DNA of 64,000 nucleotides from Candidatus Poribacteria bacterium (GTDB lineage: Bacteria > Poribacteria > WGA-4E > JAJDTR01). The notes under the pieces were generated by a model. That model saw only the letters and a program-made list of their open reading frames with translations, had not been told where the DNA came from and ran no database searches. Location: assembly GCA_965222225.1 (NCBI GenBank), contig CBDCTK010000002.1, forward strand, positions 3,424,001 to 3,488,000, written 5' to 3'. Every line of letters begins with the position of its first letter. Position 1 is the first letter of the stretch. Shown piece after piece: positions 6,025 to 32,467 of this stretch. Both the position numbers and the translations under genes were made by a program.

Positions 6025-6038
6025 CGTTCGTAGTAGTG

Positions 6039-15926: not shown

Positions 15927-16028
15927 GAAACCGATCAAGCGACCGAATAGGATCAAACGAGTGAATAACGAGTGCGATAGTGATTCCCGCGCGATAGAAA
16001 CCCCTTTTTTTCCTGAAAACTCGGTTTC
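15927..16028 (+). repeat. GAAACCGAG-type palindrome holding nested GA-hairpin units (outer 15934-16004, inner 15952-15988)
   Basis: GAAACCG[...]TTTTTTTCCTGAAAACTCGGTTTC; clean palindrome at 35869. Confidence 0.88.
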
Positions 16029-16207
16029 TGCAAGCCGTCATTCCCGTGGGATGCGATCGGCAATCGTCAAATTCCTATCCCATTTATCTTCTTCTCAGTC
16101 CAAATTGAGAAAAAACGAATTCGAAAAGCACCATGTCTTAACTGATTACTGCCTTTACGATGCTGCCCACGCGTCGCAATACAATCTAAAATAAACAAAA
16201 TATCACC

Positions 16208-18463
16208 ATGCCACGACTCACTGAACAAGAACAACAAGAAATTCTCCGTTTCATTGAGGCGGACAAACCTCTCCCCGAGAAGTATCGCTTTCTGCTATTC
16301 GAGGACAAACGCGAGGTGGAGTTAGTCTGGAATAGCAAGACCAACGAAGTCTGCAACATCGTCCTCCCCTTTCAGTCAATTGAACTCGTGGATGAACCTC
16401 GCGCCGAAAAACCTGACGACACCAGTCCGTGGCTAGAGTTGTTCGATGAGCGCGGACGCCAACTCAAGGGCTGGACGAACAAACTGATTTGGGGCGACAA
16501 CAAGTTGATTCTGTCCTCGCTTAAGAATGGTCCCCTGCGCGAGGAGATTGAAGCCGAGGGTGGACTCAAGTTAATCTATATCGATCCCCCTTTTGACGTG
16601 GGCGCGGACTTTTCCATGAACATTGAAATTGGCGAAGACACCTTTACGAAAAAACCGAACATCCTTGAAGAGATTGCCTACCGTGACACTTGGGGCAAGG
16701 GATCGGATTCATTCATTGCTATGATTTACGAGCGCGTGGTGCTAATGAGGGATTTGCTAGCAGAGGACGGAAGTATTTACGTGCATTGTGACTGGAGAAT
16801 GATCGGTTATTTGCGACTAGTTGTCGATGAAGTCTTCGGACATGACCATTTCCAAAACATAATCACTTGGCGTAGAGGCCCTCAAAAATCACATGGATTA
16901 GGTTATGGACACAACGCCGACTATATAATTTACGGAACGAAAACGGATCGATTTGTCTGGAATATACAAACCGGTGAGTTGTCAGGTGAATACTTAGAAT
17001 CCTTCAAAGAAGATGAGTATGGAAAGTATGTTACCACCCCCCTTCACAGTGGTCGTCCACCAAAAATTGTACCAGAATGGCGAGGAGTTAAACCACCCTC
17101 AGGAAGGGGCTGGGCATACACAATTGAGACACTTGAGCATTTTGATAAAGAAGGCAAAGTTGAGTGGAGCAAGAATGGTATTCCCCGGTTAAAGCGTTAC
17201 TTAAGCGAGATAAAAGGTGCGGCAGTTCAAGAAATATGGACAGATATTAAACCACTATTAGCAAAGTCCTCATCACACGTCGGATACCCCACGCAAAAAC
17301 CGGAAGCCCTGATCGAACGCATCATCAAAGCATCGTCAAACGAAGGCGATCTCATTGCCGACTTCTTCTGCGGCTCCGGCACCACTGCCGCCGTTGCCGA
17401 AAAACTCGGGCGAAAGTGGATTGCCACAGACCTCGGTAAGTTCGCTATCCACACCACGCGTAAACGAATGATCGGCGTCCAACGTCAACTGAAAACCGAT
17501 GGCAAAGACTACCGTGCCTTTGAGATTCTCAACCTCGGCAAATACGAGCGCCAACACTATATCGGCGTCAATCCAAACCTGCGCGAGGTCGAACAGCAAA
17601 GGCAATTGGAGGAAAGAGAAAAGGAATTTATCAGCCTCATTCTGCGCGCCTATTCCGCCGAGAAAACCGACGGTTTCGCCGCCTTCCAAGGCGTGCGAGC
17701 CGGGCGGCTGGTGGCGGTCGGTCCCGTCAACCTGCCGGTCACCCGCCTGTACGTGGAGGAAATCATCCTCGAATGCCGCAAACATCGAATCACCCGTGTG
17801 GATATCCTCGGCTTTGAGTTTGAGATGGGGCTGTTCCCCAACGTGCTGGATGAGGCGAAAAACAAAGGCATTGACATCGCGCCAAAATACATCCCCGCCG
17901 AGGTGTTCGACAAACGGGCAGTGGAGCGTAATCAAGTGGTGTTCCACGACGTGGCGTTTATCGAAGTCAAACCGCATATTCACGCTCCGAGCAAAGCAAG
18001 TGCACTGCCAACCGTAGCCGTCGAATTGACCAATTTTTCCGTCTTCTACTCACAAGACTCCATCGCCCACGCCGAGCAGTCGCTCAGAACGAGGGGCAGC
18101 CGCATCGCCGTCGAAAAAGGGCAGATTGTCAAGGTGAGTCGAGATGCCAACGGCGTCTACACCCGCGAGGTGTTGACCAAGCATTGGACTGACTGGATTG
18201 ATTACTGGTCCGTAGATTTTGACTTCGAGAGCAAACGTGAAATTATCCGCGTCCAAGAGCCTGAGACCGGAGAGTGGGAGGAGCAGTGGACAGGCGACTA
18301 CATCTTTGAAAACGAGTGGCAGAGCTTCCGCACAAAAAAAGACCGCTCATTGGAGTTGACCAGCGTCGCTCACGAGTGCATTCCCGGCCGCCGCAAACTC
18401 GCTGTCAAGGTGGTTGACATCTTCGGTAACGACACAATGACGGTTCTGGAGGTGTCGGTGTGA
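16208..18463 (+). CDS. mod: Type III R-M Mod subunit, adenine DNA methyltransferase (beta class)
   Basis: IYIDPPF, YPTQKPE, DFFCGSGTT, C-terminal VKVVDIFGND. Confidence 0.9.
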   Translation: MPRLTEQEQQEILRFIEADKPLPEKYRFLLFEDKREVELVWNSKTNEVCNIVLPFQSIELVDEPRAEKPDDTSPWLELFDERGRQLKGWTNKLIWGDNKLILSSLKNGPLREEIEAEGGLKLIYIDPPFDVGADFSMNIEIGEDTFTKKPNILEEIAYRDTWGKGSDSFIAMIYERVVLMRDLLAEDGSIYVHCDWRMIGYLRLVVDEVFGHDHFQNIITWRRGPQKSHGLGYGHNADYIIYGTKTDRFVWNIQTGELSGEYLESFKEDEYGKYVTTPLHSGRPPKIVPEWRGVKPPSGRGWAYTIETLEHFDKEGKVEWSKNGIPRLKRYLSEIKGAAVQEIWTDIKPLLAKSSSHVGYPTQKPEALIERIIKASSNEGDLIADFFCGSGTTAAVAEKLGRKWIATDLGKFAIHTTRKRMIGVQRQLKTDGKDYRAFEILNLGKYERQHYIGVNPNLREVEQQRQLEEREKEFISLILRAYSAEKTDGFAAFQGVRAGRLVAVGPVNLPVTRLYVEEIILECRKHRITRVDILGFEFEMGLFPNVLDEAKNKGIDIAPKYIPAEVFDKRAVERNQVVFHDVAFIEVKPHIHAPSKASALPTVAVELTNFSVFYSQDSIAHAEQSLRTRGSRIAVEKGQIVKVSRDANGVYTREVLTKHWTDWIDYWSVDFDFESKREIIRVQEPETGEWEEQWTGDYIFENEWQSFRTKKDRSLELTSVAHECIPGRRKLAVKVVDIFGNDTMTVLEVSV

Positions 18464-20007
18464 GAATTAGAAACATATACTTGACAAATTTTAAGCGGTT
18501 TACTGACCTAACCATTGAAGACATTCCCGATACGGCTAAACTCGTTATTTTGGTTGGCCCTAGTGGCAGTGGAAAATCGTCCCTGTTTGACGCTATAAAT
18601 GCTTGGGGCAAGGATTACAACTCCAGCCGCTATGACCCTGAATATTATAGAAAAGATGGCCAACAAGCAACTTCCCGCCAGGGCTATCGGTTCAACAATC
18701 TCGGCGTAAGAATCGATGCCGTTGATTGTCCCTCAAACTTGGGAGAAGCTTGTTATGTTCGTACGGCATACCGGCATACGTCCAAATTTAGCGTCTCGCA
18801 GATGACAAAAATTGACGAAAGCGAATACTGGCGACTTGACACGGGGCGTAACTTATCCGAACCCGATCAGGAAGTAGAACGAAATTATCACAGGGTGTAT
18901 GCACAAATAATGAGAGAGGTTTTTCAACAAGAAAAGCGTACTAATTTCCAAATCAGGGAAAACGTTATTGGCCAAGTTCGCGATTCCTTGCAGTCAATTT
19001 TTTCTGACGTTCGGCTGCATTCTCTCGACGATTCTGAAGGACAAATCACATTTTATTTTGAGAAGGGAGAGGCAAAAAGATACAACTATGTCAATTTATC
19101 AGGCGGAGAGAAAGCGGCTTTCGATCTACTTCTAGACTTTATCGTCAGAAAGGAATCTTACTCCAATGCAGTAATGTGTATTGACGAACCAGAAGTGCAT
19201 ATGGGATTGGGTGCCCAGAGCAGGTTGTTAGAAATTCTCTATGAGTTAATTCCTGAAAAGTCACAACTTTGGTTGGGAACACATTCCATTGGGATTTTGC
19301 GGGCATCGAAACGAATCTTAGAAGCAAATCCCGGGAAAGTTGTTTTCTTGGATTTTTCTGGACATGATTTTGACCAAACAGTCAAGATAAAGCCAGTGAC
19401 ATATCCTGACCGCAATTTGTGGACAGGACTTCATCATAGTGTCCTTGAGGATCTCTCTGGCTTGCTGGCCCCCGAAACAATTATTCTCTGCGAATCTACA
19501 CCCGGCGCTGGTTTCGATGCCCGTTGCTACAACAAGATTTTCGCAAAGAATTACCCTGATGCCCTATTTGTCTCGGCCGGAGGTAAGCCTGAGTTAGATA
19601 GGGTTATTCCAATACTCCAGGAAGTTATTCAGAAAGCGGAGATTTTCGCTCTGCGCGATCGAGATGACTTACTTGATGAAAAGCGTAATGAACTTATCAA
19701 GAAAGGTATCAGGGTTTTAACTCGCCGCAGTATAGAAGATTACCTCATTGATGATGAGATCCTAGCAAAATTTGCCGATGACAATAGCTTAAATGAAGGC
19801 CAATTGCAAACATTAAAAGACACCAACGGGGATAATGCTAAGGCAAGGTCCGGACAGATATATCAAAAAGTTAGGCAGTACGCGGTGCCCGTTGGAGAAA
19901 CGAAAGAGGAATTTCTTTCCGACGTAATTGCCCCTCTGTTCAGCGAAGAGATGGCTGTTTACCGAGAACTGGAAAAAGACATTTTTGAAGAGGTAGACCA
20001 TGCTTGA
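18460..20007 (+). CDS. ABC ATPase with C-terminal TOPRIM-like domain (OLD-family-like)
   Basis: GPSGSGKS, LSGGE, IDEPE, GTHS; ILCES ... RDRD ... SIEDYL. Confidence 0.75.
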   Translation: MRIRNIYLTNFKRFTDLTIEDIPDTAKLVILVGPSGSGKSSLFDAINAWGKDYNSSRYDPEYYRKDGQQATSRQGYRFNNLGVRIDAVDCPSNLGEACYVRTAYRHTSKFSVSQMTKIDESEYWRLDTGRNLSEPDQEVERNYHRVYAQIMREVFQQEKRTNFQIRENVIGQVRDSLQSIFSDVRLHSLDDSEGQITFYFEKGEAKRYNYVNLSGGEKAAFDLLLDFIVRKESYSNAVMCIDEPEVHMGLGAQSRLLEILYELIPEKSQLWLGTHSIGILRASKRILEANPGKVVFLDFSGHDFDQTVKIKPVTYPDRNLWTGLHHSVLEDLSGLLAPETIILCESTPGAGFDARCYNKIFAKNYPDALFVSAGGKPELDRVIPILQEVIQKAEIFALRDRDDLLDEKRNELIKKGIRVLTRRSIEDYLIDDEILAKFADDNSLNEGQLQTLKDTNGDNAKARSGQIYQKVRQYAVPVGETKEEFLSDVIAPLFSEEMAVYRELEKDIFEEVDHA

Positions 20008-20356
20008 AAATATTCGAATATCCATGTTTGAAGTTGTGGGCAGCCCTTTCTGTGTTGCTTCGAGTGATGGGCAGAAGATTTGTGACCATCTCACCACCGC
20101 CATCAAAGCGGACCGGGGTATCGCACTCTCATTTCGCAATGTTACGGCGTTGACAGCCGCTTTCCTGAATGCCGCGATTGGACAATTATACGGGATTTTC
20201 AGTGAGGAACAAATACGTTCCCGGTTGAAGGTGGAGGACGTGGGGGCGGATGATTTAGCTTTGTTGAAGCGCGCCGTTGACACCGCGAAGTTGTACTTCA
20301 AGGACCCGGAGAGATTCAATCGAGTAATCCAAGAGATAATGGAAGACGAGGAATGA
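20000..20356 (+). CDS. STAS-like domain protein (DUF4325)
   Basis: DGQKI, LSFRNV, TAAFLNAAIGQLY. Confidence 0.8.
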   Translation: MLENIRISMFEVVGSPFCVASSDGQKICDHLTTAIKADRGIALSFRNVTALTAAFLNAAIGQLYGIFSEEQIRSRLKVEDVGADDLALLKRAVDTAKLYFKDPERFNRVIQEIMEDEE

Positions 20357-20415
20357 GAGTGTGGCGGCAACCTTAGAGATGATACGATGGTGGTTTTGGG
20401 GGTGAAAGCATAAGC

Positions 20416-21804
20416 ATGAAAATAACGTTGAAAAACCTTGGAATTCTGAAACATGCCGAGTTTTCTCTTGGAGATTTGACCATTATCTGCGGTGAAAACA
20501 ACACTGGCAAAACCTATGCTACCTATGCACTGTATGGTTTCTTAGCAGATTGGCGCAAGTTTGTCAATTTTCCGTTGAGTTCAAGGTTAGTTGCAAGCCT
20601 ACTTACGGATGGTGTTCTCACAGTCGCGTTGAAACCATTTGTCGATATGGCGGAACGCATGCTTGTTATAGCATGTAGAAGATATACTACTCGATTAGAC
20701 GATGTTTTTTCGGCAGCTGAGGGACAGTTTAGCAATAGTGAATTTCACCTCCGATTATGCACCTCCAATATACTTGATAAGGAATTGAAAGGCGAGATCG
20801 AAATTACCCAAGAGAGAAATTTTGCCTATTCAAAGAGAAGAGGTAGTGACGAATTAACAGTTACTTTGATGATGGGAAAAGAACAAGAGAAACCAATCAA
20901 TTCAAGTTTGGCGGGCTTTGTAGCCAACGCTATCATCAGCAACGCTATTTTTGCTGATTCTTTTCCTACCCCCTTTATCTCCTCCGCCGAGCGCACCGGT
21001 GTGGCTATTTTTCGGAAGGAACTCAATTTTGCTCGGAACCGTGTCCTTGAAGAAATGGGTCGGACAGACCAAAAGATTGATCCTAGGGAAATCCTATTCA
21101 AAGCGCATCAAAGTTACCCTCAACCAATAGAAGACAATGTGGATTTTATACGCCAACTTGAAGATATTACAAAAAGAGAAAGTTTCATTGCTAAGGAACA
21201 TCCGGAAGTATTGAAAGAGTTTGCAGACATAATCGGTGGCGATTATCAGATATCACAAAATGACCAACTTCATTATACTCCTAAAGGGACCGGGCTCAAA
21301 TTGGCGATGGACCAAAGTTCAAGTGCCGTGCGTTCACTCTTGGACATTGGCTTTTATCTGGGCCACGTGGCTCGGAAGGGCGACCTACTCATGGTAGACG
21401 AACCGGAGTTAAATCTTCATCCAGCCAACCAACGTCGTGTCGCTAGGCTTTTTGCGCGTTTGGTAAATTTAGGCGTTAAGGTCTTCATCACGACCCACAG
21501 CGATTACATAATCAAAGAGTTGAACACGCTCATCATGCTCAATCACGATAAGCCACACCTGAAAAGAATTGCCCAAGAAAACGGTTATCGGGAATCGGAA
21601 CTGATTTCTTCCGACCAAGTTAAGGTCTATATGGCTCGCGAAGAACTAATGCCGCTAGAGGAAAGACAGAAAAGACGGAGAAGGGGGCACACACTAGTGG
21701 AAGCGGATATTGATCCGGTGCTTGGCATTGAAGCCCCAAGTTTTGACAAGACCATAGATGAGATGACCGCTATTCTAGAGGACATTGTGTGGGGCGCGGA
21801 GTAG
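20416..21804 (+). CDS. ABC-type ATPase (AAA_15/AAA_21)
   Basis: GENNTGKT, SAERTG, SSSAVRSL, VDEPELNLHP, TTHS. Confidence 0.85.
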   Translation: MKITLKNLGILKHAEFSLGDLTIICGENNTGKTYATYALYGFLADWRKFVNFPLSSRLVASLLTDGVLTVALKPFVDMAERMLVIACRRYTTRLDDVFSAAEGQFSNSEFHLRLCTSNILDKELKGEIEITQERNFAYSKRRGSDELTVTLMMGKEQEKPINSSLAGFVANAIISNAIFADSFPTPFISSAERTGVAIFRKELNFARNRVLEEMGRTDQKIDPREILFKAHQSYPQPIEDNVDFIRQLEDITKRESFIAKEHPEVLKEFADIIGGDYQISQNDQLHYTPKGTGLKLAMDQSSSAVRSLLDIGFYLGHVARKGDLLMVDEPELNLHPANQRRVARLFARLVNLGVKVFITTHSDYIIKELNTLIMLNHDKPHLKRIAQENGYRESELISSDQVKVYMAREELMPLEERQKRRRRGHTLVEADIDPVLGIEAPSFDKTIDEMTAILEDIVWGAE

Positions 21805-21809
21805 AGAGT

Positions 21810-22391
21810 GTGAATGATATTGAGATATTACAAGACATGCTTTCCTCTGCGGTCAGAGTTCCATTACAACAAGAGGGACAAAATAAGCCTTCCGTCCAAC
21901 TAATCGACGACCAAGCCGCGACAGCAGTAGAAATAAAAGGATTGCCTTATGACTCAATCGTTATCAGAGCGGAGGATTTTGAAAACCCCCTTACCATCTT
22001 TAACGGTTCAAAAGGCGAACGCAAGCGGGCGGATTTCGTGATTGTATCAAATGAGGAGCAAGGAAAATGGATTATCTGCATTGAAACTCAGGCGGGGAAC
22101 GACAAAAGTGAGGGGCATATTATAGCTCAATTAAAAGGAGCACAATGCTTTATCGGTTACTGCAAATGTATAGGCATCTCGTTCTGGGAATCTGTAGAAT
22201 TTCTTGATGGTTACCAGTACCGATTTGTAAGCATGGCAAACATAAACAGCAACAAGGTAACCAAGAAAACGCGTCCCTACTCTCCTCACATACAATCCAA
22301 AGGTGAGTTGCACGACACGCCTGACGATTTTCTGAAATTCTTGCAGAGTCCGAGCCTCTATTTTCGTAAGTTACTTCATGAAGTGTCTTGA
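21810..22391 (+). CDS. Hypothetical protein, possible PD-(D/E)XK-fold partner of the ATPase
   Basis: KRADFVIV...ICIETQ...QLKGA; GTG start 5 nt after the ATPase stop. Confidence 0.6.
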   Translation: MNDIEILQDMLSSAVRVPLQQEGQNKPSVQLIDDQAATAVEIKGLPYDSIVIRAEDFENPLTIFNGSKGERKRADFVIVSNEEQGKWIICIETQAGNDKSEGHIIAQLKGAQCFIGYCKCIGISFWESVEFLDGYQYRFVSMANINSNKVTKKTRPYSPHIQSKGELHDTPDDFLKFLQSPSLYFRKLLHEVS

Positions 22392-22424
22392 CCGCATTCT
22401 CTTGAAGGGATGGCTGATTGTTAA

Positions 22425-22454
22425 CCTTCCAGTCTTCCTCTCTTCCAATCTTCC
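22425..22454. repeat. CTTCC 8-nt-period tandem repeat
   Basis: CCTTCCAGTCTTCCTCTCTTCCAATCTTCC. Confidence 0.7.
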
Positions 22455-22538
22455 GACCGACCAAACAAACAGGTTGTTTGGAAGATAAACCTCAAAACCA
22501 ACACCTGCTTTACACCCATAGGAGGCGCACAAACACGA

Positions 22539-24443
22539 TTGCAATCCAATAGTCAGGGACGATTTATCCGTCCAGTCATCCTCGGAATCATCCTGATACC
22601 GATCAACCTCTATTGGGTTATGCAAGCGGAGACCATCTATCGCCCCGTTTTTTCGACGCTCTTTACGCTCTTTTACAATGTTACGTTCAGTCTCTTTGTC
22701 TTGGTGATACTCAATGCCCTGCTAAAGAGATGTATCCCCAGCATCGCCTTCCACCCAAGTGAACTGCTGATTGTTTACGTGATGCTTTCCATCGCTACGG
22801 CAATTTTTGGGCACGATCTGATGCTGGTGATGATACAAAATCTCTCGGCTTTCTGGTTTGCGACGCCTGAGAATCAGTGGGCAGTCCTTTTCGGGAAGCA
22901 TCTGCCGCACTGGTTGAGCATGGTCGATGAACAAGCGCTCATCGGCTACCAGCACGGAGAATCCACACTCTATAACGAAATAAATCTCAAAGCTTGGCTA
23001 ATACCCGGGGCGTTTTGGGGCGGGTTCCTGATAATATTGCTCCTCGTACTGATCTGCATCAACACCATCGTTAGAAAACAGTGGACAGAAAATGAGAAGT
23101 TAGCTTATCCAATCATCCAACTACCGCTCGAGTTGGCGCGCGGCGGCACCGGACTGCTAGGCAATCGCGGGTTGTGGCTCGGTTTTGCACTCGCCGGCGG
23201 AATGGACATAATAAACGGGGTCCACGGAATCTTTCCGTCATTCCCAGCCCTGAAGCCGACCTACGATGTCACGCCGCTGTTTACCACCAAACCGTGGAAT
23301 GCCATTGGCTGGACACCGGTAGCCGTCTATCCCTTTGTGGTGGGGTTGGGTTACTTTTTGCCGTTAAATCTTTCGTTTTCCGCGTGGTTTTTCCACGTCT
23401 TCTGGAAGTCGGAGCTTATTTTTCGGAATGCGGTAGGAATTTGGAGCGTTCCGGGACCCTACAGGAGCTTTGAGACCGCTGGCGCTTGGATAGTCATCGC
23501 TTTCGTTGCGTTGTGGGGCAGTCGGAAATACCTAAAACAGGTTGCGGCTTGGACAATTCGCGGTCAACCGCCGGAAATCACGGCCGATGAGCCGATGACC
23601 TACCGAACCGCGATTGGGGGAATGCTGGTAGGGGGAGCCATTTTGGTGCTTGCCCTGAGTTACGCCGGAATGACTCCTTGGATAGCGATTCTTTTTCTGT
23701 TAATCTACATTGTCTATGCCGTAGCCATTGCCCGGATTCGAGCAGAGATTGGACCGCCCGCCCATGATGCGGAATGGATAGGGCCCGAAATGATGCTCCT
23801 CAACAGTTTAGGCGCACGAACAGTAGGGCAACGAAACATCGCGCTGTTCAGCCGCACCTACTGGATGAGCCGCGCGTACCGTTCTCACCCCGTCGGTCAC
23901 CAACTGGAAGGCTTCAAAATCGCACAATCCGTTGGGGCGTCGAGTCGTGGCTTTCTGGGAGCAATGGTGATTGCCATCGTCGTCGGCACCATCGCCGGAT
24001 TTTGGGTGTTTCTGGATAGCATGTATCGGCATGGCGCGTTGAATGTCTATCACAATATTTCCAATGAGTCGTTCCGCCGTCTCGAAGTTTGGTTAGAAAA
24101 CCCGCTGGAAGGAAACAATCAAATGCTCATGGATGTCGGGCTAGGTGCGGGCATAACGATTGTGTTGACGCTGCTTCACCAGCGCTTCGTCGGCTTCCCA
24201 TTCCACCCTGTCGGTTATGCCGTCGCCTGTGGATGGGTATTTAGCGTCGCCTGGGCTTCACTTTTTTGTGCATGGCTGATTAAATGGTGCATCCTGCGAA
24301 TCGGTGGAATTCGACTCTATCGGAAGGCAGTCCCCTTTTTTGTGGGCCTCATATTGGGACAGCATGTGATCGGCGGGTTATGGACGATTTTCGGCGAAAT
24401 TCGGGGCGCTCATGTGCATCAGTTCTTTCCCTACGCTTTCTAA
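22539..24443 (+). CDS. Polytopic membrane protein (DUF6785/DUF6784-like, putative transporter)
   Basis: Many TM helices; RKQWTENEKLAYPIIQLP, RIRAEIG, PFHPVGY, PFFVGLILG. Confidence 0.75.
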   Translation: MQSNSQGRFIRPVILGIILIPINLYWVMQAETIYRPVFSTLFTLFYNVTFSLFVLVILNALLKRCIPSIAFHPSELLIVYVMLSIATAIFGHDLMLVMIQNLSAFWFATPENQWAVLFGKHLPHWLSMVDEQALIGYQHGESTLYNEINLKAWLIPGAFWGGFLIILLLVLICINTIVRKQWTENEKLAYPIIQLPLELARGGTGLLGNRGLWLGFALAGGMDIINGVHGIFPSFPALKPTYDVTPLFTTKPWNAIGWTPVAVYPFVVGLGYFLPLNLSFSAWFFHVFWKSELIFRNAVGIWSVPGPYRSFETAGAWIVIAFVALWGSRKYLKQVAAWTIRGQPPEITADEPMTYRTAIGGMLVGGAILVLALSYAGMTPWIAILFLLIYIVYAVAIARIRAEIGPPAHDAEWIGPEMMLLNSLGARTVGQRNIALFSRTYWMSRAYRSHPVGHQLEGFKIAQSVGASSRGFLGAMVIAIVVGTIAGFWVFLDSMYRHGALNVYHNISNESFRRLEVWLENPLEGNNQMLMDVGLGAGITIVLTLLHQRFVGFPFHPVGYAVACGWVFSVAWASLFCAWLIKWCILRIGGIRLYRKAVPFFVGLILGQHVIGGLWTIFGEIRGAHVHQFFPYAF

Positions 24444-24461
24444 ATTGTACTACTTAAATCC

Positions 24462-24482
24462 GTAGGGTGCGCACTACGCACC
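24462..24482 (+). repeat. GTAG REP-like palindrome
   Basis: GTAG GGTGCG CACTA CGCACC. Confidence 0.6.
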
Positions 24483-24505
24483 AGCCTTTGTAAGTGTAAG
24501 CGGCA

Positions 24506-24604
24506 ATCGAGCGAAAGAATAATGAGCGATCAACTGAGTGGTTAACGAACGCGATAGGAGATCTTGGTAGAGTTCCAACAGAGATCGCAAGGCGATGAAA
24601 TCCC
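24506..24604 (+). repeat. Nested GA-hairpin units (inner 24529-24565) plus suffix fragments
   Basis: ATCGAGCGAAAGAATAATGAGCG[ATCAACTGAGTGGTTAACGAACGCGATAGGAGATCTT]GGTAGAGTTCC... Confidence 0.82.
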
Positions 24605-24748
24605 ATAGCTTCTAGGTTGGGTTGAACGTAGTGAAACCCAACTCCAAGCGTGAATCTAGTTCGCTTGGCAAACACCCATGCATACCTTCGGCTAAAATTT
24701 TCATGCCTCCCATTGATAGGGCGGCTAATTCGTGGGAGTTATAACTTG

Positions 24749-26281
24749 ATGGACTACACAACCGACATAGAAAAGACCGAGAAACTAATTGACTCAACCT
24801 TGGCGTTGACGCAGAAATTCCAGAACGATCCACATCGACCGGTCTACCATTTTATGCCGCCGTCAGCGTGGATGAACGACATCAACGGCACAATCTACTG
24901 GGATGGGCGATATCACCTCTTCTACCAGTACAACCCGCAAGCCGCCTACTGGGATCAGATTCATTGGGGGCACGCGTCGAGCACGGATCTCGTCCACTGG
25001 GTGCACCATCCCGTTGCGCTGGCGCCGGGCCCCGACCGCCCTGACCGCATCGGTTGTTTCAGCGGCGGCGCATTCATCAGCAAAGAGGGTGTTCCAACCT
25101 TCATCTACTACGGCTTCCCCGACGGAATCTGTCTGGCGACGAGTCAAGATGACCTGCTTCTCAACTGGACAAAGCATCCCGACAACCCCGTTATCCCGGC
25201 GCCCCAACCGGGCGATCCCGATTTTGGGAAATATAGTGTCCATGATCCGTGCGCTTGGCTTGAAGGCGACACCTATTATGCGCTGCTCAACCGCCACAAC
25301 CCGGAGGGAAAGGGTGATTCGGGATACCTGTTCAAATCAGGAAATCTGACGGAATGGGAATATCTCGGCGAGTTTTACGAATCCTCTAGGGGCTGGACGG
25401 AGGCTGACGAAGACCTTGCCGTGCCCGATTTCTTCCCCTTGGGTGACAAACACATGCTGCTCTTCTGTAGCCATCTTCGTGCCACGCAATATTACCTCGG
25501 TCGTCTGGAAAACGAGCGATTCTACCCCGAATGTCATGCACGAATGAGCTGGCCCGGTGGACATCTCGGCGGTGCAAGGACGCTTCTGGACAATCAGAAT
25601 CGACGTATCTTCTTCGATTGGATTGGCGAGATGGGCGGTGTGGAGCGAGCGCGTGCTGCGGGTTGGTGCGGGGTTATGACGCTGCCGCGGGTGCTCTCTC
25701 TGAACGAAAACAGTACGTTGCGGATTGAGCCGGTGCCCGAGCTGAGCGTGCTCCGCATGAATGAGCGTAGCCATCAAAATCTGCACGTGCAATCCGATTC
25801 AGAGTTAGTCGTCGAAGATATGGCGGGGGACTGTCTGGAATTGGCAATCGACATCTCCTCTGCGGACGCGCGGGAATTCGGTGTGAAAGTGCGTTGCTCT
25901 CCCGATGGCGTGGAGCAGACTACCATCTTCTACGACAGGGCGTCCAAAACGCTGAAGGTAGGTGTCAGGCAGTCAACCTTGGACGATTCCATCCGATACA
26001 TTTACTACCGCACCTCGGAAGCGACGGAGCGGCTGCCCGAGGCGGAACGATTTGTAGCCGCCCAAGCGGCGCCGTTTGAGCTTGCTGCTGGCGAATCGCT
26101 CGAACTTCGGATTTTCCTCGATCGTTCGGTATTGGAAGTGTTTGCCAATCATCGCGAGTGCATCACACAGCGAATCTACCCGACCCGACCCGATAGCACG
26201 GGTGTGCGTCTGTTCTCCAAAGGCGGGAGCGCCCACGTCAGATCCATTCGGGCTTGGGATATGGCACCAACCCACCACTGA
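24749..26281 (+). CDS. Glycoside hydrolase family 32-like protein
   Basis: WMNDING, YHLFYQYNP, HWGHA, FSGG, HDP, LPR, DRSVLEVF. Confidence 0.88.
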   Translation: MDYTTDIEKTEKLIDSTLALTQKFQNDPHRPVYHFMPPSAWMNDINGTIYWDGRYHLFYQYNPQAAYWDQIHWGHASSTDLVHWVHHPVALAPGPDRPDRIGCFSGGAFISKEGVPTFIYYGFPDGICLATSQDDLLLNWTKHPDNPVIPAPQPGDPDFGKYSVHDPCAWLEGDTYYALLNRHNPEGKGDSGYLFKSGNLTEWEYLGEFYESSRGWTEADEDLAVPDFFPLGDKHMLLFCSHLRATQYYLGRLENERFYPECHARMSWPGGHLGGARTLLDNQNRRIFFDWIGEMGGVERARAAGWCGVMTLPRVLSLNENSTLRIEPVPELSVLRMNERSHQNLHVQSDSELVVEDMAGDCLELAIDISSADAREFGVKVRCSPDGVEQTTIFYDRASKTLKVGVRQSTLDDSIRYIYYRTSEATERLPEAERFVAAQAAPFELAAGESLELRIFLDRSVLEVFANHRECITQRIYPTRPDSTGVRLFSKGGSAHVRSIRAWDMAPTHH

Positions 26282-26348
26282 CGCATACATCAACCATTAT
26301 GTTCACCGGTAATACCATTTCGCTGCACACCAAACTCGGTTGACGGGG

Positions 26349-26420
26349 ATCAAGGGAGTGAATAACGACCGATCAACTAACTGGACAAGGAAGGCGATAG
26401 TAAATCCCGATAGAGATCCC
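26349..26420 (+). repeat. Nested GA-hairpin units (inner 26372-26408) inside a CGGGG...CCCCG palindrome
   Basis: ATCAAGGGAGTGAATAACGACCG[ATCAACTAACTGGACAAGGAAGGCGATAGTAAATCCC]GATAGAGATCCC. Confidence 0.9.
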
Positions 26421-26539
26421 CTTGCCCCGCGTTGGAAAGACTCGATTGACGCTATTAATGCACTGTAAATATGGGGAAATCGTATAAATTTCCGTAACAC
26501 AATAGCACGGCAAATCCGCCTCATGAAGGAGAATGACTT

Positions 26540-26956
26540 GTGTTAACCGGATTATGGACAATTGGCATTAAGGTGCCCTCTCTTGAACGGGAATTGGCGT
26601 TCCATCGGCAGATGGGCAACGAAATTGTCCTTGATGAGATTTTGGAACTTGACGGTGAGTCCTTTCGCCTACCCCTGATCGAGATGGGAGACAAATACAT
26701 CCATGTGGCGGAGAAGATGGCATACGAATCTTTCTTGGATGAACCTCTCCCCTACGGCATGACGCACCTGGTTTACATCAGCAATCGCTTTGATGAAGAT
26801 GTCGCCAAAGCCATTGAAAGCGGTGCCGTCGCCTTGAGGGAACCTGCTGAAGTAAAGGCGGAGTTCGGCGAGAGAAGAGTAGCGTTTCTGCGCGCCCCAA
26901 GTGGTTGGATCTTCGAGATCATCGAAATCAAGCGGAATCTAGTTCCCGAGGTCTAA
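26540..26956 (+). CDS. VOC/glyoxalase family protein
   Basis: IGIKVPSLE, GMTHL, AFLRAPSGWIFEIIE. Confidence 0.8.
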   Translation: MLTGLWTIGIKVPSLERELAFHRQMGNEIVLDEILELDGESFRLPLIEMGDKYIHVAEKMAYESFLDEPLPYGMTHLVYISNRFDEDVAKAIESGAVALREPAEVKAEFGERRVAFLRAPSGWIFEIIEIKRNLVPEV

Positions 26957-27008
26957 AAGAGCAAATAGCGACGGAGCACTGACCGATTGGGAAGGCGCTA
27001 GAACTCCC
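26954..27008 (+). repeat. Degenerate nested GA-hairpin units (inner 26975-27008)
   Basis: AGCA CT GA CC GATT GG GA AG GCGCT AGAACTCCC. Confidence 0.65.
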
Positions 27009-27085
27009 ATCACGCATTTATACTGTAAACTACTTCGTTGACTAATACAGAATATGCCAAAATCTGCACAAGCAAGGACAACTCC

Positions 27086-27457
27086 ATGACCGGAACACAG
27101 CAACAAATCACCGAATCATTGATAACCGATCTTCAGAACGGAACCCTCACCGAAGCCCGATTGCGCCAGAAAATCGCTGCTATCGCGACGGAAACGGAAA
27201 AAAAACGCCAGGACATTCTTTATCTACAGGTTGGAACAACATCCCCCGCATCGCAAGTGGTCGGCATGACGTACATAGAGGCCGGTGTCCTCAAAGAAGC
27301 ATCTTCCGACCCAAACGAATGGCAATATCAGACAGTGCTCAACGCCGTTCAGAGCGGTTGGCGGATCATCTCTTTTCCCAACATGGCGCTATTAGCCATG
27401 TCCGACGAAGAATCCTACGGCCTCGGTTTTGAGTTTATTTTGGAACGCTGGAGGTAA
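27086..27457 (+). CDS. Hypothetical protein
   Basis: RBS-like AAGGAC before the ATG; GWRIISFP...EFILERW; abuts the PhyH gene. Confidence 0.7.
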   Translation: MTGTQQQITESLITDLQNGTLTEARLRQKIAAIATETEKKRQDILYLQVGTTSPASQVVGMTYIEAGVLKEASSDPNEWQYQTVLNAVQSGWRIISFPNMALLAMSDEESYGLGFEFILERWR

Positions 27458-27460
27458 ATC

Positions 27461-28306
27461 ATGAAACCATCCGAGATGAAAACCTACGATTGTGAACCAA
27501 CCCTGACCGATTCGCAGGTGGTGGAATTTTGCACGAACGGCTATCTGATGCTTGAGGGTGTGGTATCCGACGAAACCAACCGCCGGTCGATGGACTACTG
27601 CGACGAGTATTCCAATCACGAGCCGAGCGGTATTCTACAACAAGGCTGGTTCGTGGAGGATGTCATCATCAATCCGGTCGCAGCCGGTGCCGTGCGGTCG
27701 CTGTTAGGGACGAACTTTCACTTGCCTATACTGATGAGTAACCACCGCGTTCCCTGTCCGCAGGGCCCCACGCACTGGCACGTAGACGGAAACTACAAGC
27801 ATCAATATGAGTTGAATTTCCTCCAAGTTTTCTACTATCCTCAAGATACGCCAATTGAAATGGGACCGACGCAGGTTCTGCCGGGATCTCACCTGATACG
27901 AAATAAGGCGCGATTCATGTGTCATCTAAGCGGGATTCGTGGAGCAATCTCGACCGCCGCCCCAGCAGGCTCTATTTTTCTCACGGTGTATCACATTTGG
28001 CACCGCCGCGGTCCCTCGACGGCGACGGCCATGCGAAACTTGCTCAAATACTTCTACTGGCGCACAACACCGCCCAAACGCGACTGGGTAATTGAACCGG
28101 ATTTCGACTTTGCGACTGCCCGTTACGGTGGCCCCGGGCAAAACTATTCCGAACAGTTTCGCGATACGGTAAAGGTTGCCGAGACGTTCTTGTGGCTCTG
28201 CGGCAAGCATGAGTCCTTTCGGAATTTGGGCGGACAGAGTTGGCCGCTTCCCGCGAATCGGATTGATCTCCCTTATGGCTTTCCCGAAGGTCTCCCGCAG
28301 CCCTAA
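27461..28306 (+). CDS. PhyH family dioxygenase
   Basis: WHVD, YYPQDTP, GPTQVLPGSH, IWHRR. Confidence 0.88.
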   Translation: MKPSEMKTYDCEPTLTDSQVVEFCTNGYLMLEGVVSDETNRRSMDYCDEYSNHEPSGILQQGWFVEDVIINPVAAGAVRSLLGTNFHLPILMSNHRVPCPQGPTHWHVDGNYKHQYELNFLQVFYYPQDTPIEMGPTQVLPGSHLIRNKARFMCHLSGIRGAISTAAPAGSIFLTVYHIWHRRGPSTATAMRNLLKYFYWRTTPPKRDWVIEPDFDFATARYGGPGQNYSEQFRDTVKVAETFLWLCGKHESFRNLGGQSWPLPANRIDLPYGFPEGLPQP

Positions 28307-28365
28307 ACCGCAAAGAGTCGCTGCTCATATCCACTAGCGTTTGCGCAATGTGGCTCGTATTAGCG

Positions 28366-28435
28366 ATCAACTGAGTGGATAACGAAGGAGCAACTGACCG
28401 ATAGGGAAGGCGGTAGAGATCTCATAGAAATTCCC
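28366..28435 (+). repeat. Nested GA-hairpin units (inner 28389-28423)
   Basis: ATCAACTGAGTGGATAACGAAGG[AGCAACTGACCGATAGGGAAGGCGGTAGAGATCTC]ATAGAAATTCCC. Confidence 0.88.
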
Positions 28436-28480
28436 GTCCGATTGCTATCCCGACAGGTTATGGCAGGTAATAACAGAAAT

Positions 28481-29707
28481 ATGAGAAAATCCCTCCTTAC
28501 GCGATCGAAAATTTCCCTGCCACCAACTATTCAAACAGGTTTTAAGCATATGCTGTGCTTCGCGTTACTGTGTGGTACAATCCTGACAGCGGCAGCGCAA
28601 CCGGAGGTCTCCTATGCGGAAGACCAAGCAGCCCTTCAATTGTACGACGAAGGACTACGTGTCGCTTTTCGCGGCGAAGTAGATGAAGCCATCTCTGCAT
28701 TCAAGCAGGCCGCACTGCTTGACGACACGCTGGCGGATGCGCACGCCTATCTTGGCATGCTATACGGGATTCGTGGTCAGTGGAAGGACGCAATTCAAGC
28801 GTTTCAAGATGCCTTAGAAGCCGATCCCACCTATGTCGAGGTCTATAGTGAGCTTGGAGAAGCCTACCTGAACACGCTTGGCAGCGTTGATCGGGCAATT
28901 TCACCCCTTGAGAAAGCTGTTCAACTCCATCCCCATGACGAACGAGCGAGACGACTGTTGGGCACGGCATATCTCCGCATGAATCGGATTGATGAGGCAA
29001 AACACGAACTCCAAAAAGCCCTTGAACTCAATCCCTCTGACGCGGACGCCATTTACAACCTTGGTCTAGCCTTTTTTCGCCAAGGGAAATTCCAAGCGGC
29101 GAGTTTGCGCTTTAAGCAACTGCTAGAACACAACCCCCTCCATGCTCAAGCGCATTTCAACCTGGGAAATTGCTTGGCTCGTACCGGGGAGCGAGCCGGA
29201 GCCAATAGAATCCTCCAAACCTTTGAGAAACTCCGAATCCAAGAAGAGCAAATTAAGCAGCTCGACCGAATGGTCGGTCGTCAGCCAAATAACCCGGATG
29301 TTTGGCGTCAGTTAGGTCTGCTTCGCTTGGAGCGCCGTGAGTGGGACAACGCGATTACGGCGCTTGAAAAATGCATCGGGCTGGCACCGCAGGAAACTAG
29401 ATGTCAGGAAGCTCTCGGTTTCCTCTATGCCCAACTCAAGGACTACGAAAAGGCGCACGAGATATACAAGCAGCTTGTTCGTAGCCGTCCCGATGTCCCG
29501 GAATATCGACACAGCCTTGGTCTCGTTCACTACATGCTGGCAGATTACTCTCAAGCCATAGAGCAGTTTCAAGCATCAATTCGTCTGGCGCCGTCCAAAC
29601 CCCGATTCCGCGCGAGTTTAGCCAATGCCTACAAACTCGCGGGAGACGAAGCCAAAGCGGCAGAAGAATATCAACGCTACCAAGAGTTGCAGTCCCAAGA
29701 GAAATGA
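28481..29707 (+). CDS. Tetratricopeptide repeat protein (start uncertain, 28442-28550)
   Basis: About ten TPR motifs (AHAYLG, AIYNLG, AHFNLG); signal-peptide-like segment. Confidence 0.88.
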   Translation: MRKSLLTRSKISLPPTIQTGFKHMLCFALLCGTILTAAAQPEVSYAEDQAALQLYDEGLRVAFRGEVDEAISAFKQAALLDDTLADAHAYLGMLYGIRGQWKDAIQAFQDALEADPTYVEVYSELGEAYLNTLGSVDRAISPLEKAVQLHPHDERARRLLGTAYLRMNRIDEAKHELQKALELNPSDADAIYNLGLAFFRQGKFQAASLRFKQLLEHNPLHAQAHFNLGNCLARTGERAGANRILQTFEKLRIQEEQIKQLDRMVGRQPNNPDVWRQLGLLRLERREWDNAITALEKCIGLAPQETRCQEALGFLYAQLKDYEKAHEIYKQLVRSRPDVPEYRHSLGLVHYMLADYSQAIEQFQASIRLAPSKPRFRASLANAYKLAGDEAKAAEEYQRYQELQSQEK

Positions 29708-30576
29708 GTTCACGTAAACCGTCGCCCCTAGTCCTACTCCTCGCCTTCGTGTGTCTCTTCCTGACCTTCCCAGACCTCTTTTGGAAACATAAATCCTCTG
29801 CGTTTGCCCAAACGCCACGAGCCCCGGAGGGAATGGTTCGAGTTCCTGCCGGTGAGTTTGCCATGGGCAACGATGATGGGGCACAACATGAAAAGCCTAA
29901 TCACAAGGTGTTCCTCGATTCCTACTATATCGATCTGCATGAAGTCACCAACGCAGAATATCACGCCTTCTGGATTGCTGATGGCAGTGAGGATAGCGCC
30001 CACACCCCCGTCAGTTATGGCGACAGGCTTGGTGTGGAAAATTGGCCCAAGATTGCTAAGACCAAGCCGGACTATCCGGTGGTGGGCGTGTCTTGGCATG
30101 ATGCCGTTGCCTATGCAAAATGGGCTGACAAACGATTGCCGACGGAAGCCGAATGGGAAAAAGCCGCGCGGGGAACGGATAGCCGGCTATGGCCCTGGGG
30201 GAATGCCTTTTCGCTGCGAATCCGAGGAACGAACGTCCACGCTAACGTGTGGGGCAGCAACGATGGTTATCACGATGGTCTAGCCCCCGTGGGAACTTAT
30301 CCAACCGGCGCAAGTTCGTATGGCGTTCTGGACATGGCTGGAAATGTCTGGGAATGGGTGGCAGATTGGTATTCGGAGTCTTACTATCATTGGGGACCGT
30401 CTCGAAATCCCAAAGGCCCCGAACGCGGAGGCAGGCGGGTAGTACGGGGCGGTTCGTGGGCAAATGGAGCACAACTGACACAATGCTCGAATCGTATGGG
30501 ACACTATCCAGCCGTAGGAACGAGTTTTATCGGTTTTCGTCTCGCAAAGGACGCCGAGAAAGAATTGCAGGAATGA
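29704..30576 (+). CDS. SUMF1/FGE-sulfatase domain protein
   Basis: EVTNAEY, RLPTEAEWEKAARG, DMAGNVWEW, RGGSW, GFR. Confidence 0.92.
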   Translation: MSSRKPSPLVLLLAFVCLFLTFPDLFWKHKSSAFAQTPRAPEGMVRVPAGEFAMGNDDGAQHEKPNHKVFLDSYYIDLHEVTNAEYHAFWIADGSEDSAHTPVSYGDRLGVENWPKIAKTKPDYPVVGVSWHDAVAYAKWADKRLPTEAEWEKAARGTDSRLWPWGNAFSLRIRGTNVHANVWGSNDGYHDGLAPVGTYPTGASSYGVLDMAGNVWEWVADWYSESYYHWGPSRNPKGPERGGRRVVRGGSWANGAQLTQCSNRMGHYPAVGTSFIGFRLAKDAEKELQE

Positions 30577-32282
30577 GTATAACGACAAATTGGTTGACTT
30601 CTTTACTCACAAATAATAAACCTTGGTTTGCTTGTTTGGTAATACTGTTGGCGCCGCCTATAGTACACGGTGACATGCCTCAAGTTGAATTTACCGATGT
30701 CACCGTAGGTGCCGGGATTAAATTTCGGCACGTAAACGGGGCAAAAGGCGACTACCATCTTCCGGAGACCATGGGCGCTGGCGGGGCGTTCTTTGACTAC
30801 GACTCCGATGGCAATCTCGATCTCTATCTCATCAACAGCGGATATTTAACAGACACTGCATCGCAGGCGTCGGTCACAAGTATTCTCTATCGTAACAACG
30901 GCGACGGAACGTTTACAGACACTACGGCCCAAGCAGGTGTTGGCAACGCCGGGAATTACGGAATGGGCGCCGCGTGCGCCGACTATGACAACGACGGGGA
31001 TACCGATCTCTACGTCACGAATTTCGGTACGAACATACTTTATCAAAACAACGGCGATGGTACATTCACGGACATAACCGATAAGGCGGGCGTCGGGGAT
31101 GAGTTGCTGGGAAGTAGCGCAACCTTCTTCGATTACGACCGCGATGGGCACTTGGACCTTTACGTTGTCAACTACGTTCATTATGCGGTAGATGTCCCGC
31201 GCCGTCCATGCGGCATTAACGGCATCCGCACTTACTGCCATCCGGAGCACTTTATTGGCGCCCCCGACCAACTTTATCGGAACAATGGCGACGGTACATT
31301 TTCGAATGTCACTGAGGCGGCAGGTATAACAAACGTCAGTGGCCCCCACAGCGGAAAAGGCCTCGGAGTCATCGCGGCGGATTTCAGCAACGACGGAGAA
31401 CCCGATCTCTACGTCGCCAACGACACCACTCCCAACTTTCTCTTTTACAACAACGGGAACGGTACCTTTACGGAGATTGGTCTTTTCTCGGGTTGTGCCT
31501 ATAGCTTTGACGGTATTGCGCAGGCAAGCATGGGGGTTGACGCCGGAGACTACAACCGCGATGGGTTCTTGGACATCTTTGTGATTAACTTCTCTCAAGA
31601 AACAAACGCGCTCTACCAAAACAACGGCGATGGTACATTCACTGATGTAATTTACGACGTGAACCTGGGAAAGGAGAGCTACATCTTCCTTGGATTCGGA
31701 ACAGGTTTTTTTGACTATGACAACGATGGGTGGCTCGACCTCTTCATTGCAAATGGGCACATTAGCGACAATATCGAACAGATTACCAATGTAGTGACGT
31801 ACGCACAGCGTGACCAGCTGTTCCATAACAACAAGGATGGCACGTTTACCGAAGTGTCGCTAAGTTCCGGCAGCTATTTTCAATACGAAGGCGTGGGACG
31901 CGCCGCAATCTTCGGGGATTATGACAATGACGGAGACGTTGACATCGCCGTAACCCAATCCAACGGCCCCGCCCATCTACTACGCAACGATGGCGGAAAT
32001 CGCCAGAACTGGCTACGCGTTAAACTCGTCGGTGCCAAGAGTAACCGTGATGGCATTGGTGCGCGAATTCGCTTAACGGTGGGTGACGAATCCTGGGCAC
32101 AAGAAGTACACGCAGGGCATAGTTACTTGTGCAGCAACGATCCGAGAGTCCTTTTTGGTCTAGGTGATGTCCGAACGGTCGATCACTTGGAAGTTCGCTG
32201 GCTCAGTGGAACCGTGCAGGTGCTTGAGCATATCCCTGCAAACCAAGAAATCGTCATTACTGAACCGGATAGCGAGAAGTGA
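30573..32282 (+). CDS. CRTAC1 family protein (FG-GAP repeats + ASPIC/UnbV)
   Basis: Repeated DYDNDGxxDL / NNGDGTFTD; SNRDGIGARI; ATGA overlap with the upstream gene. Confidence 0.9.
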   Translation: MSITTNWLTSLLTNNKPWFACLVILLAPPIVHGDMPQVEFTDVTVGAGIKFRHVNGAKGDYHLPETMGAGGAFFDYDSDGNLDLYLINSGYLTDTASQASVTSILYRNNGDGTFTDTTAQAGVGNAGNYGMGAACADYDNDGDTDLYVTNFGTNILYQNNGDGTFTDITDKAGVGDELLGSSATFFDYDRDGHLDLYVVNYVHYAVDVPRRPCGINGIRTYCHPEHFIGAPDQLYRNNGDGTFSNVTEAAGITNVSGPHSGKGLGVIAADFSNDGEPDLYVANDTTPNFLFYNNGNGTFTEIGLFSGCAYSFDGIAQASMGVDAGDYNRDGFLDIFVINFSQETNALYQNNGDGTFTDVIYDVNLGKESYIFLGFGTGFFDYDNDGWLDLFIANGHISDNIEQITNVVTYAQRDQLFHNNKDGTFTEVSLSSGSYFQYEGVGRAAIFGDYDNDGDVDIAVTQSNGPAHLLRNDGGNRQNWLRVKLVGAKSNRDGIGARIRLTVGDESWAQEVHAGHSYLCSNDPRVLFGLGDVRTVDHLEVRWLSGTVQVLEHIPANQEIVITEPDSEK

Positions 32283-32348
32283 CGAAAGTCGGTTATCTGA
32301 AACTGCCATTCACTTCAGCGCTGCAATGCGGCGTGAGCATCTGTAGGG

Positions 32349-32467
32349 ATCAAACGAACGAATAGTGAGTGCGATAGCAATCTTTGATAACGAAGGATCA
32401 AGGGATTGGATAATGACCGCGATAGAGTTCTCATAGAAAATTCCGTAGTGACTGCGATTGGAATCTT
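32349..32467 (+). repeat. GA-hairpin compound array (full unit, then nested pair with inner 32397-32432, then a suffix)
   Basis: Follows GTAGGG; two full units and three fragments. Confidence 0.88.

Follow-up and report, generated by a model that had tools for sequence, protein, structure and literature searches.

How does a repeat of 35 to 37 nt come to lie inside another copy of itself? The question is raised by a 64,000-nt stretch of a Candidatus Poribacteria genome (the window, G000:C2:3424001-3488000; genome 5.70 Mb, two contigs, GC content 0.50), in which copies of a small non-coding hairpin repeat, here called family B, stand in the arrangement of prefix, full unit, and suffix. An initial annotation held that the unit nests inside itself at a preferred site, NNG|CGAT, through repeated independent insertions rather than slippage. 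We confirm that the self-nesting is real, and the interpretation is supported in substance. New copies are whole units put into existing hairpin-forming repeats, co-oriented with the host when the host belongs to the same family. Family B is probably a very small, strand-specific mobile element that inserts as a whole unit into hairpins, its own copies included. Several public sequencing runs with a matching stretch carry the label sponge metagenome.

The consensus of the unit is (G)GATCAA N6N7 GA N10N11 G[AG]ATA N17N18 GA N21N22 GCGATAG A[AG]ATCCC, occasionally with an extra base before the tail. Its parts are a head, (G)ATCAA; a hairpin; a GCGATAG box; and an ARATCCC tail, which ends raggedly in CC, CCC, or CCCC among copies. 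The hairpin has two 2-bp helices around a tandem G.A/A.G pair and is closed by a GRATA loop. A position scan of the genome for the 22 specified positions of the unit core, with at most three mismatches accepted, returned 1073 cores (489, 337, 157, and 90 with 0, 1, 2, and 3 mismatches), and all four stem pairs were intact in 884 of them. Stem pairs 6-22, 7-21, 10-18, and 11-17 were paired in 93-96% of copies versus 48-80% after shuffling, and each showed three to four pair types. G.A or A.G occupied positions 8/20, 9/19, and 12/16, the last of which closes the loop, in 93-96% of cores (995-1031/1073). There were 284 stem haplotypes among 983 unit copies. T was nearly absent directly after either stem GA, so GAT is avoided within the stem, though GAT begins the unit. 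Units were mostly extragenic: 200 of 1070 (19%) lay in open reading frames (ORFs) of at least 120 aa, and such ORFs span 85% of the contig. Their density on contig C2 varied widely, with 100-kb stretches holding anywhere between 0 and 68 units. Rfam gave no match at gathering score across the window and none at E <= 1 within 32300-32500.

Using a jumping profile hidden Markov model (HMM) with uniform jump penalties, we parsed the arrays of the window into the following pieces, with positions within the unit counted from 0.

5729-5835, plus strand: multi-level array of two left pieces, one full unit, and three right pieces
5729-5736 and 5737-5746, plus strand: left pieces of the 5729 array (positions 0-7 and 0-9)
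5747-5783, plus strand: full unit of the 5729 array
5784-5808, 5809-5824, and 5825-5835, plus strand: right pieces of the 5729 array (from positions 13, 21, and 26)
15933-15950, plus strand: outer copy, left piece (unit positions 0-17)
15951-15988, plus strand: inner full copy, stems ACGAGT/ACGAGT, tail TGATTCCC
15989-16003, plus strand: outer copy, right piece, from position 21 (GC GCGATAG AAACCCC)
24505-24527, plus strand: outer copy, degenerate left piece (AATCGA GCGAAA GAATA ATGAGC)
24528-24565, plus strand: inner copy, one mismatch, 3/4 stem pairs
24566-24576, plus strand: outer copy, right piece (GGTAG AGTTCC), resuming at GGTAG
26348-26370, plus strand: outer copy, left piece, positions 0-22, stems GGGAGT/ACGACC, hairpin complete
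26371-26407, plus strand: inner copy, stems CTAACT/AGGAAG
26408-26420, plus strand: outer copy, right piece (CGATAG AGATCCC), resuming at CGATAG
26959-27008, plus strand: degenerate nest, left piece (positions 8-23) and then an inner copy resembling the 28389 copy
28365-28388, plus strand: outer copy, left piece (positions 0-23)
28389-28423, plus strand: inner copy, degenerate (AGCAA CTGACC GATA GGGAAG GCGGTAG AGATCTC)
28424-28434, plus strand: outer copy, right piece (ATAG AAATTCC), resuming at ATAG
32348-32384, plus strand: full unit heading the array 32348-32467, which has two full units plus pieces
32386-32395, plus strand: left piece of outer copy, positions 13-22 only (GATA ACGAAG)
32396-32432, plus strand: inner full copy, stems GGGATT/ATGACC, 3/4 pairs
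32433-32467, plus strand: right pieces, ATAG AAAATTCC (positions 26-36; 32433-32444) and then TAGTGACTGCGAT..ATCTT (from position 15)

The prefix-unit-suffix arrangements that had been read by eye at 24506, 26349, 28366, and 32386 were thus all recovered. In the parse (24505, 26348, 28365, and 32386), the first G of the inner copy is G23 of the outer copy, and 0-2 outer bases (C or CG) are lost at the right joint. The outer copy resumes past the NNG|CGAT joint much as described, at GGTAG (24505), CGATAG (26348), and ATAG (28365 and 32386). The nest claimed at 15934 also stands: the break splits the hairpin, and the variable positions of the two outer halves are complementary, with stems GC/CC pairing with G(G)/GC and outer positions 18/19-20 missing. 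Several rounds of insertion had been seen at 5730 and 32349, and both arrays proved deeper and untidier than the other nests, with multiple pieces parsed. In the 5729 array, the AC of the second left piece pairs with the GT of the 5809 piece, and the 5784 piece is partnerless. The nest thought likely at 26954 held in part; a left piece and an inner copy are there, but this nest is weak, with many mismatches and no right piece.

Self-nesting extends across the genome. In an excision test, each unit was removed with borders flexible by a few bases, and the rejoined flanks had to form a unit with no more than 4 mismatches in 27. Excision restored an outer unit at 251 of 1073 units but at only 8 of 1073 randomly chosen positions, far more than chance would give; for outer units oriented the other way, the counts were 35 and, at random, 10. 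Reversed control patterns, for the unit and for the nest signature alike, had 0 matches in 41 genomes. Genome-wide, the jumping HMM parsed 978 regions with 965 full units. Where units had pieces on both sides, the class of the left piece predicted that of the right piece (154 of 199 matched): left pieces ending at 20-23 were paired with right pieces starting at 24-27 in 77 cases (other right classes, 10), those ending at 15-19 with starts at 20-23 in 58 (others, 18), and those ending at 11-13 with starts at 13-16 in 19 (others, 7). The numbers of left and right pieces per unit correlated (Spearman 0.37), with 118 units at (1,1) and 15 at (2,2), and the deepest stacks had 3 left and 5 right pieces. 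Tandem head-to-tail unit pairs, with joints from position 36 to position 2, accounted for 51 cases.

The initial annotation had proposed comparing rejoined outer halves with shuffled ones. For nests that split the hairpin and have a recognizable right box (102 of 174), we compared N6N7 on the left with N21N22 on the right. Of the 204 cells, 165 were paired in the rejoined halves; shuffles averaged 120.2 (standard deviation, 5.0), and 0 of 5000 shuffles reached the observed value. By insertion class, the numbers of shuffles (of 5000) that reached the observed pairing were 0 at offset 12, 0 at offset 17, 10 at offset 18, and 101 at offset 10. The offset-19 class alone was not above shuffle (264 of 5000), and most of its right pieces read GT regardless of the left piece. 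Inner and outer stem haplotypes differed in 247 of 251 nests and were identical in 4, while 239 of the 251 combinations of outer copy, inner copy, and site were distinct, which argues both against slippage and against the spread of a few composites. The preference for repeated independent insertion over slippage was therefore well placed, with slippage-type deletions acting secondarily.

Where does the inner copy enter? Among the 321 units with a recognizable outer left piece, the inner copy started 23 positions into the outer one in 134, 19 in 47, 12 in 46, 17 in 39, 18 in 23, 10 in 19, and at other offsets in 13. The site given as preferred, NNG|CGAT, is the commonest, with 129 of 309 (42%) in the HMM parse, but copies also enter at the loop G, at the second stem GA, and at G17/18. 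Used sites span the first loop base, the 3' arm, and positions up to the first base past the hairpin; G8, G25, and G29 of the unit are barely used as targets. AACGA| was enriched at loop and stem sites only, and loop insertions favored AACGA| and the inner type CTGAGT.

The joint rule became explicit at empty sites. For the 773 units with a parsable tail, we asked whether the 9 bases on each side of the unit recur elsewhere 0-5 bases apart, and an empty paralogue of the unit's own site was found for 220. The replaced stretch opened with G in 210 of these 220; its length was 2, 3, 4, or 1 nt in 107, 76, 26, and 8 cases, and the commonest stretches were GC (49), GCA (28), GCG (26), GA (25), GG (12), and GCAT (12). 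A G with the next one to three bases is exchanged for the unit, measured from its initial G through CCC, and no target duplication is made. Joints fall on a G of the host hairpin, be it in the loop, the 3' arm, or the 3' foot; the unit's opening G (often GA) coincides with it, and the host loses the one to three bases beyond. When GA is what has been replaced (the GA of the loop or of the second stem, or GTAGGAGCGA|TCTCC at 8613), the event reads as a clean TCAA...CCC insertion after GA. At these empty and filled sites, 82 hosts were intact B units, 115 were other repeats, and 23 were mixed, so hairpin repeats of other kinds house the unit no less often than its own copies do. Because the unit carries suitable Gs of its own (G12, G17-19, and G23), it is its own target, and repeated hits produce stacks of prefix, unit, and suffix up to 3-5 deep.

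A frequent host is a GTAG-tagged repetitive extragenic palindromic (REP) repeat, GTAGGGTGCGCACTRCGCACCAGCC, found at 24462-24487 in the window and at many sites in the genome. In the empty-site tally, GCA before the loop was replaced in 14 sites with the right flank CTGCGCACC plus 7 with CTGCGATCA, and in the 3' arm 7 sites had GC replaced, with 6 more that read as G shifted by 1 nt.

Relatives carry the same pattern, and among the genomes compared family B occurred in two genera. The nest signature was present in 13 of 13 relatives with at least 100 strict unit copies, at 30-187 per genome with a control of 0; it was absent in genera without the strict unit and in G010 (group g2; 2 strict copies). 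The whole 15933-16003 block was absent at the orthologous site in G005 and G009, the two closest usable relatives, which read GAAACCGAGTTTTT there: GAAACC-GAG-TTTTT versus GAAACC-[83 nt]-TTTTTTT in the window. GAG is thus the stretch replaced, in line with the same joint rule. G005 is syntenic over the region, with an identity of 78-95% (86-95% in the flanks of the four spacers compared), yet the spacers themselves were wholly different. Near 26348, G005 has a different array with the same starting flank, whose first unit differs by compensated changes in both helices; it has no array at 28365, one unit in place of the array near 32348, and unrelated content at 24505.

Unit orientation tracks local GC skew. 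Among 806 clusters, plus-strand units fell in positive and negative skew 142 and 293 times and minus-strand units 234 and 137 times (odds ratio, 0.28), and over 100-kb bins the Spearman correlation between orientation and skew was -0.55. Orientation showed no link to the coding strand. The skew profile of contig C2 is patchy, with many sign changes at the 100-kb scale and no two clean replichores.

The link to skew and the Y1_Tnp genes of these genomes hint at single-stranded DNA, and we infer, tentatively, a single-strand, hairpin-targeted chemistry of the HUH/Y1 kind, which is possible without being the expected answer. Insertion would occur on single-stranded, hairpin-folded DNA at the replication fork, with the reaction performed in trans by an HUH/Y1-type enzyme comparable to the IS200/IS605 and REP-associated transposases. 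Two same-strand cuts a few bases apart would yield a small target deletion rather than a duplication. Copying may be restricted to units with invariant boxes and a paired stem; such selection would hold about 28 positions nearly fixed and let the four stem pairs drift by compensatory change.

A number of observations weigh against a mobile element moved in this way. Orphan pieces are common, with 144 units having a right piece only and 107 a left piece only. Pairings recur: 12 of the 14 loop insertions examined were an inner CTGAGT in an outer xCGAAC, so either more than a single G defines the target, or composites have in some cases spread whole. Read in the conventional way, the skew appears to put the GATCAA strand mainly on the leading-strand template, and the strand bias of IS608 and ISDra2 is the opposite of this polarity. 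Known Y1 elements enter exactly 3' of a target of 4-5 nt, and we know of no Y1 example that deletes target bases. At no orthologous site was a single step caught, with the outer copy by itself on one side of the comparison and with its inner copy on the other; an outer-only stage was sought in G005 at 24505, 26348, 28365, and 32348, loci too divergent for single steps. Finally, Y1 genes are present also in genera without family B, and no cognate enzyme was found among the Y1 and RAYT genes examined.

The best Y1 gene (locus L001/L019, G000:C2:3080258-3080728) is a single-copy, IS200/IS605-like gene of 157 aa that matches the NCBIfam model NF033573 at 65.8 bits, with a REP-type score of 30.6 bits (cut-off, 80), and it has B units on both sides. 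It was rejected because its own flanking repeat is another hairpin in 12 loci from 12 genomes (L001/L019 and L020-L030), namely, inverted copies of AAGCCCCNNNGGGGCGACAGGTG, often tandem upstream. In G000, G001, and G005, a B unit lies inside the downstream AAGCCCCNNNGGGGCGACAGGTG-type hairpin, at GGGG|..|ACAGG with CG lost. The AAGCCCCNNNGGGGCGACAGGTG hairpin looks like the REP family of this Y1 gene, and its GCGACAG box resembles the unit's GCGATAG. Y1_Tnp genes occurred in all four g4 genomes and in G000 (PF01797 was searched in G000 and five other genomes), and a homologue of the L001 gene occurred in 9 of 9 g1 relatives.

A second candidate (L005/L043, G000:C2:3560268-3560504) comprises the C-terminal 80-90 aa of a RAYT-type transposase with inverted B units and pieces on both sides, which may or may not have had a part in its truncation. 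Full-length homologues (frames of 193-225 aa) occur in G001, G003, G005, G006, G008, and G009. The candidate was rejected since the intact homologues in G001, G003, G005, G006, and G008 have no B unit within 700 nt; the G009 copy, with one in-frame TAA, likewise has none within that distance. An L002-type RAYT was rejected as sporadic (3 of 9 same-genus relatives). A search for a parent element, with a left and a right piece around a gene, gave 153 coincidental pairs, none interpretable.

Could the arrays arise without an enzyme? In a copy-choice process, a nascent strand stalled at a template hairpin would switch to another unit by way of a 1-2 nt microhomology, G or GA, copy that unit to the CCC end, and return a few bases downstream, leaving a templated insertion with a small deletion. 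This would account for the G or GA that the left joint always has in common with the target, for the variable loss of 1-3 nt at the right joint, for hairpins as targets and an orientation that tracks GC skew, and for our failure to find a cognate enzyme. We nevertheless consider it unlikely, as the ends of the copied segment are sharply fixed at about 1000 places and the return point has no visible microhomology, with right flanks starting in A, C, G, or T. Where a B unit is the host, co-oriented insertion is also 7-10 times as frequent as the opposite arrangement, a bias that an enzyme reading one strand would explain too. Copying through RNA seems very improbable. Here, a bottom-strand transcript ending in ..UUGAUC-3' would be reverse transcribed from a nicked G or GA priming on UC. 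The G/GA sharing at the left joint and the ragged CC/CCC/CCCC tails agree with such a route, target-primed retroelements typically make small target deletions, and the tandem G.A and GRATA loop resemble RNA motifs. Yet the unit has no Rfam match, its orientation is independent of the coding strand, and no reverse transcriptase is linked to it, though none was searched for.

Growth of the arrays by slippage or unequal recombination among tandem copies is hardly credible as their origin, since the stems differ in nearly all nests, outer halves separated by an inner copy pair with one another, and the unit interrupts unrelated repeats and unique sequence. Such a process does remain as a secondary, eroding one. 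Contigs of runs X1 and X10, from other studies, have 12 extra bases after 28363, and those of X1 have 28 more after 28422; these stretches are bounded by direct repeats (CGATCAA and ATAGAAATTCCC), so slippage-type deletions or gains reshape the arrays too. The differences at 28363 and 28422 look like strain-level array polymorphism. Orphan pieces and the 51 tandem joints point the same way, and later deletion between direct repeats, eroding the stacks, fits the excess of orphans. Nor are the stacks assembly artefacts of a repeat-rich genome, an explanation whose probability is negligible. Short-read contigs do break at arrays, and X8 records end at 32375 and begin at 32348. However, an X8 contig spans 23718-24642, including the 24505-24576 nest, with zero differences (X8 is possibly the source sample and so perhaps not independent), the X1 and X10 contigs carry the 28365 array, and the nest signature recurs in 13 other genomes, single-contig and fragmented alike. 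In four public runs, available as contigs rather than reads, no joint skipping the inner copy alone was seen among the matches listed, a result that is uninformative.

A bolder proposal, which we regard as doubtful, is that family B comes close to a minimal replicator and works by a new kind of mechanism: a 35-nt hairpin copying itself at a G into the 3' half of any suitable hairpin and deleting 1-3 target bases, through either enzyme-free template switching or an HUH enzyme making two same-strand cuts. If that were true, self-nesting would follow from the element being its own best target, and family B would also be a hyperparasite of the genome's other REP families.

The remaining family B copies of the window are as follows.

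6038-6074, plus strand: solo unit, one mismatch, 4/4 stem pairs
8613-8649, plus strand: solo unit within another hairpin repeat, GTAGGAGCGA|unit|TCTCCGAATCGCGACC, with the uninterrupted GTAGGAGCGATCTCCGAATC at ~46180
38139-38168, minus strand: solo unit core
43343-43379, plus strand: solo unit
43569-43626, plus strand: compound of a degenerate left piece and a unit, then TCTCCGGATCGCGACC
46202-46231, plus strand: solo unit core
49148-49184, plus strand: solo unit, two mismatches
51335-51371, plus strand: solo unit

A third hairpin repeat, GTAGGAGCGATCTCCGAATCGCGACC, lies at ~46178-46201 (intact near 46180), at 8600-8665 (split by the unit at 8613), and at 43620-43645. The window also holds larger repeats. 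Coding repeats with a recurring GACTAYGACAACGAYGG motif, FG-GAP/VCBS-like by appearance, occur in at least five copies at 30795-31958. At 52632-53820 and 34690-36722 there are tandem repeats of 330-336 nt, 61-75% identical, and repeats with a 135-nt period in a pair of paralogous 1.3-kb blocks; both kinds are probably repeat-domain genes. A 300-nt direct repeat pair (86% identity, 980 nt apart) occupies 884-2258, and a common 33-nt motif recurs at 32773.

Family B fills and quickly remodels intergenic spacers, breaks short-read assemblies, and disrupts other repeats, and annotators of sponge-symbiont genomes should recognize it. It is among the smallest mobile DNAs seen. How does it compare with known systems? 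Classical MITEs, miniature transposable elements that carry inverted repeats at their ends, duplicate the target, and have a related insertion sequence, differ from it, since target duplication is absent and the search for a unit split around a gene gave coincidences only. IS200/IS605 elements and their gene-less derivatives need no terminal inverted repeats, make no target duplication, recognize hairpins, and insert strand-specifically by a short motif, with an orientation tied to replication. Family B likewise lacks target duplication and terminal inverted repeats and is strand-specific; its orientation tracks local GC skew. In contrast, it has one hairpin instead of two, its target is a single G in a hairpin context rather than a 4-5 nt word, it loses target bases, its strand bias is seemingly reversed, and it has no partner element with common ends. 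IS1397 and others are protein-coding insertion sequences that target REP hairpins and make target duplications; family B resembles them as mobile DNA homing to hairpin repeats, but it is geneless and makes a small deletion.

With REP, BIME, and REPIN repeats, as excerpts of the literature describe them (PMC3116915, PMC3337134, PMC3733652), family B has in common a high copy number, an extragenic location, imperfect hairpins of 20-40 nt, and Y1 genes in the same genomes. In REPs, a GTAG or CGTC tag is conserved at one of the palindrome's ends (PMC3733652). Family B has no such tag; its ends are GATCAA and ARATCCC, and the GTAG found upstream belongs to host repeats. Unlike REPINs, it has no preferred inverted spacing, with neighbor pairs within 150 nt on the same strand in 209 cases versus opposite strands in 50. 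No RAYT gene is flanked by family B as its own repeat, as judged from the 12 L001 Y1 loci and the RAYT homologues. Self-nesting is not reported in the passages of the REP literature at hand, with "nested" occurring 0 times in those of PMC3116915. Our search of the literature on Poribacteria repeats and on nested bacterial MITEs and REPs, which was not exhaustive, found no paper on family B.

The closest precedent appears to be the small dispersed repeats (SDR1-8) of Nostoc punctiforme and the Nostocaceae. Elhai and colleagues (2008) reportedly found that SDR1 and SDR4 nest in themselves, with recent mobility between close genomes and no transposase known. Both groups consist of very small non-coding repeats with a hairpin that shows compensatory changes and with precise insertion at short sites, and family B, like SDRs, is a unit of less than ~40 nt inserted whole and precisely, own copies included. 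SDRs differ in being 21-27 nt long and cyanobacterial, against 35-37 nt, another phylum, and a tandem G.A stem for family B, a comparison that is one of features. To our knowledge, a joint rule in which a G is accompanied by the loss of 1-3 nt of target is undescribed for SDRs. SDR5 inserts between the third and fourth bases of HIP1 (PMC4390886). A HIP1 link or cyanobacterial origin of family B was rejected, with GCGATCGC present just 120 times in the genome and the labels of public runs indicating a sponge symbiont. How repeats too small to encode anything move has been an open question since the cyanobacterial SDRs, and family B, a close parallel, extends SDR-like behavior to an unrelated, uncultured phylum, with ~1000 copies per genome and hundreds of filled/empty pairs. 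What is added here over known self-nesting repeats is a quantified joint rule and a strand bias, which make the mechanism testable and, together with a short list of candidate enzymes, turn it into a biochemical question.

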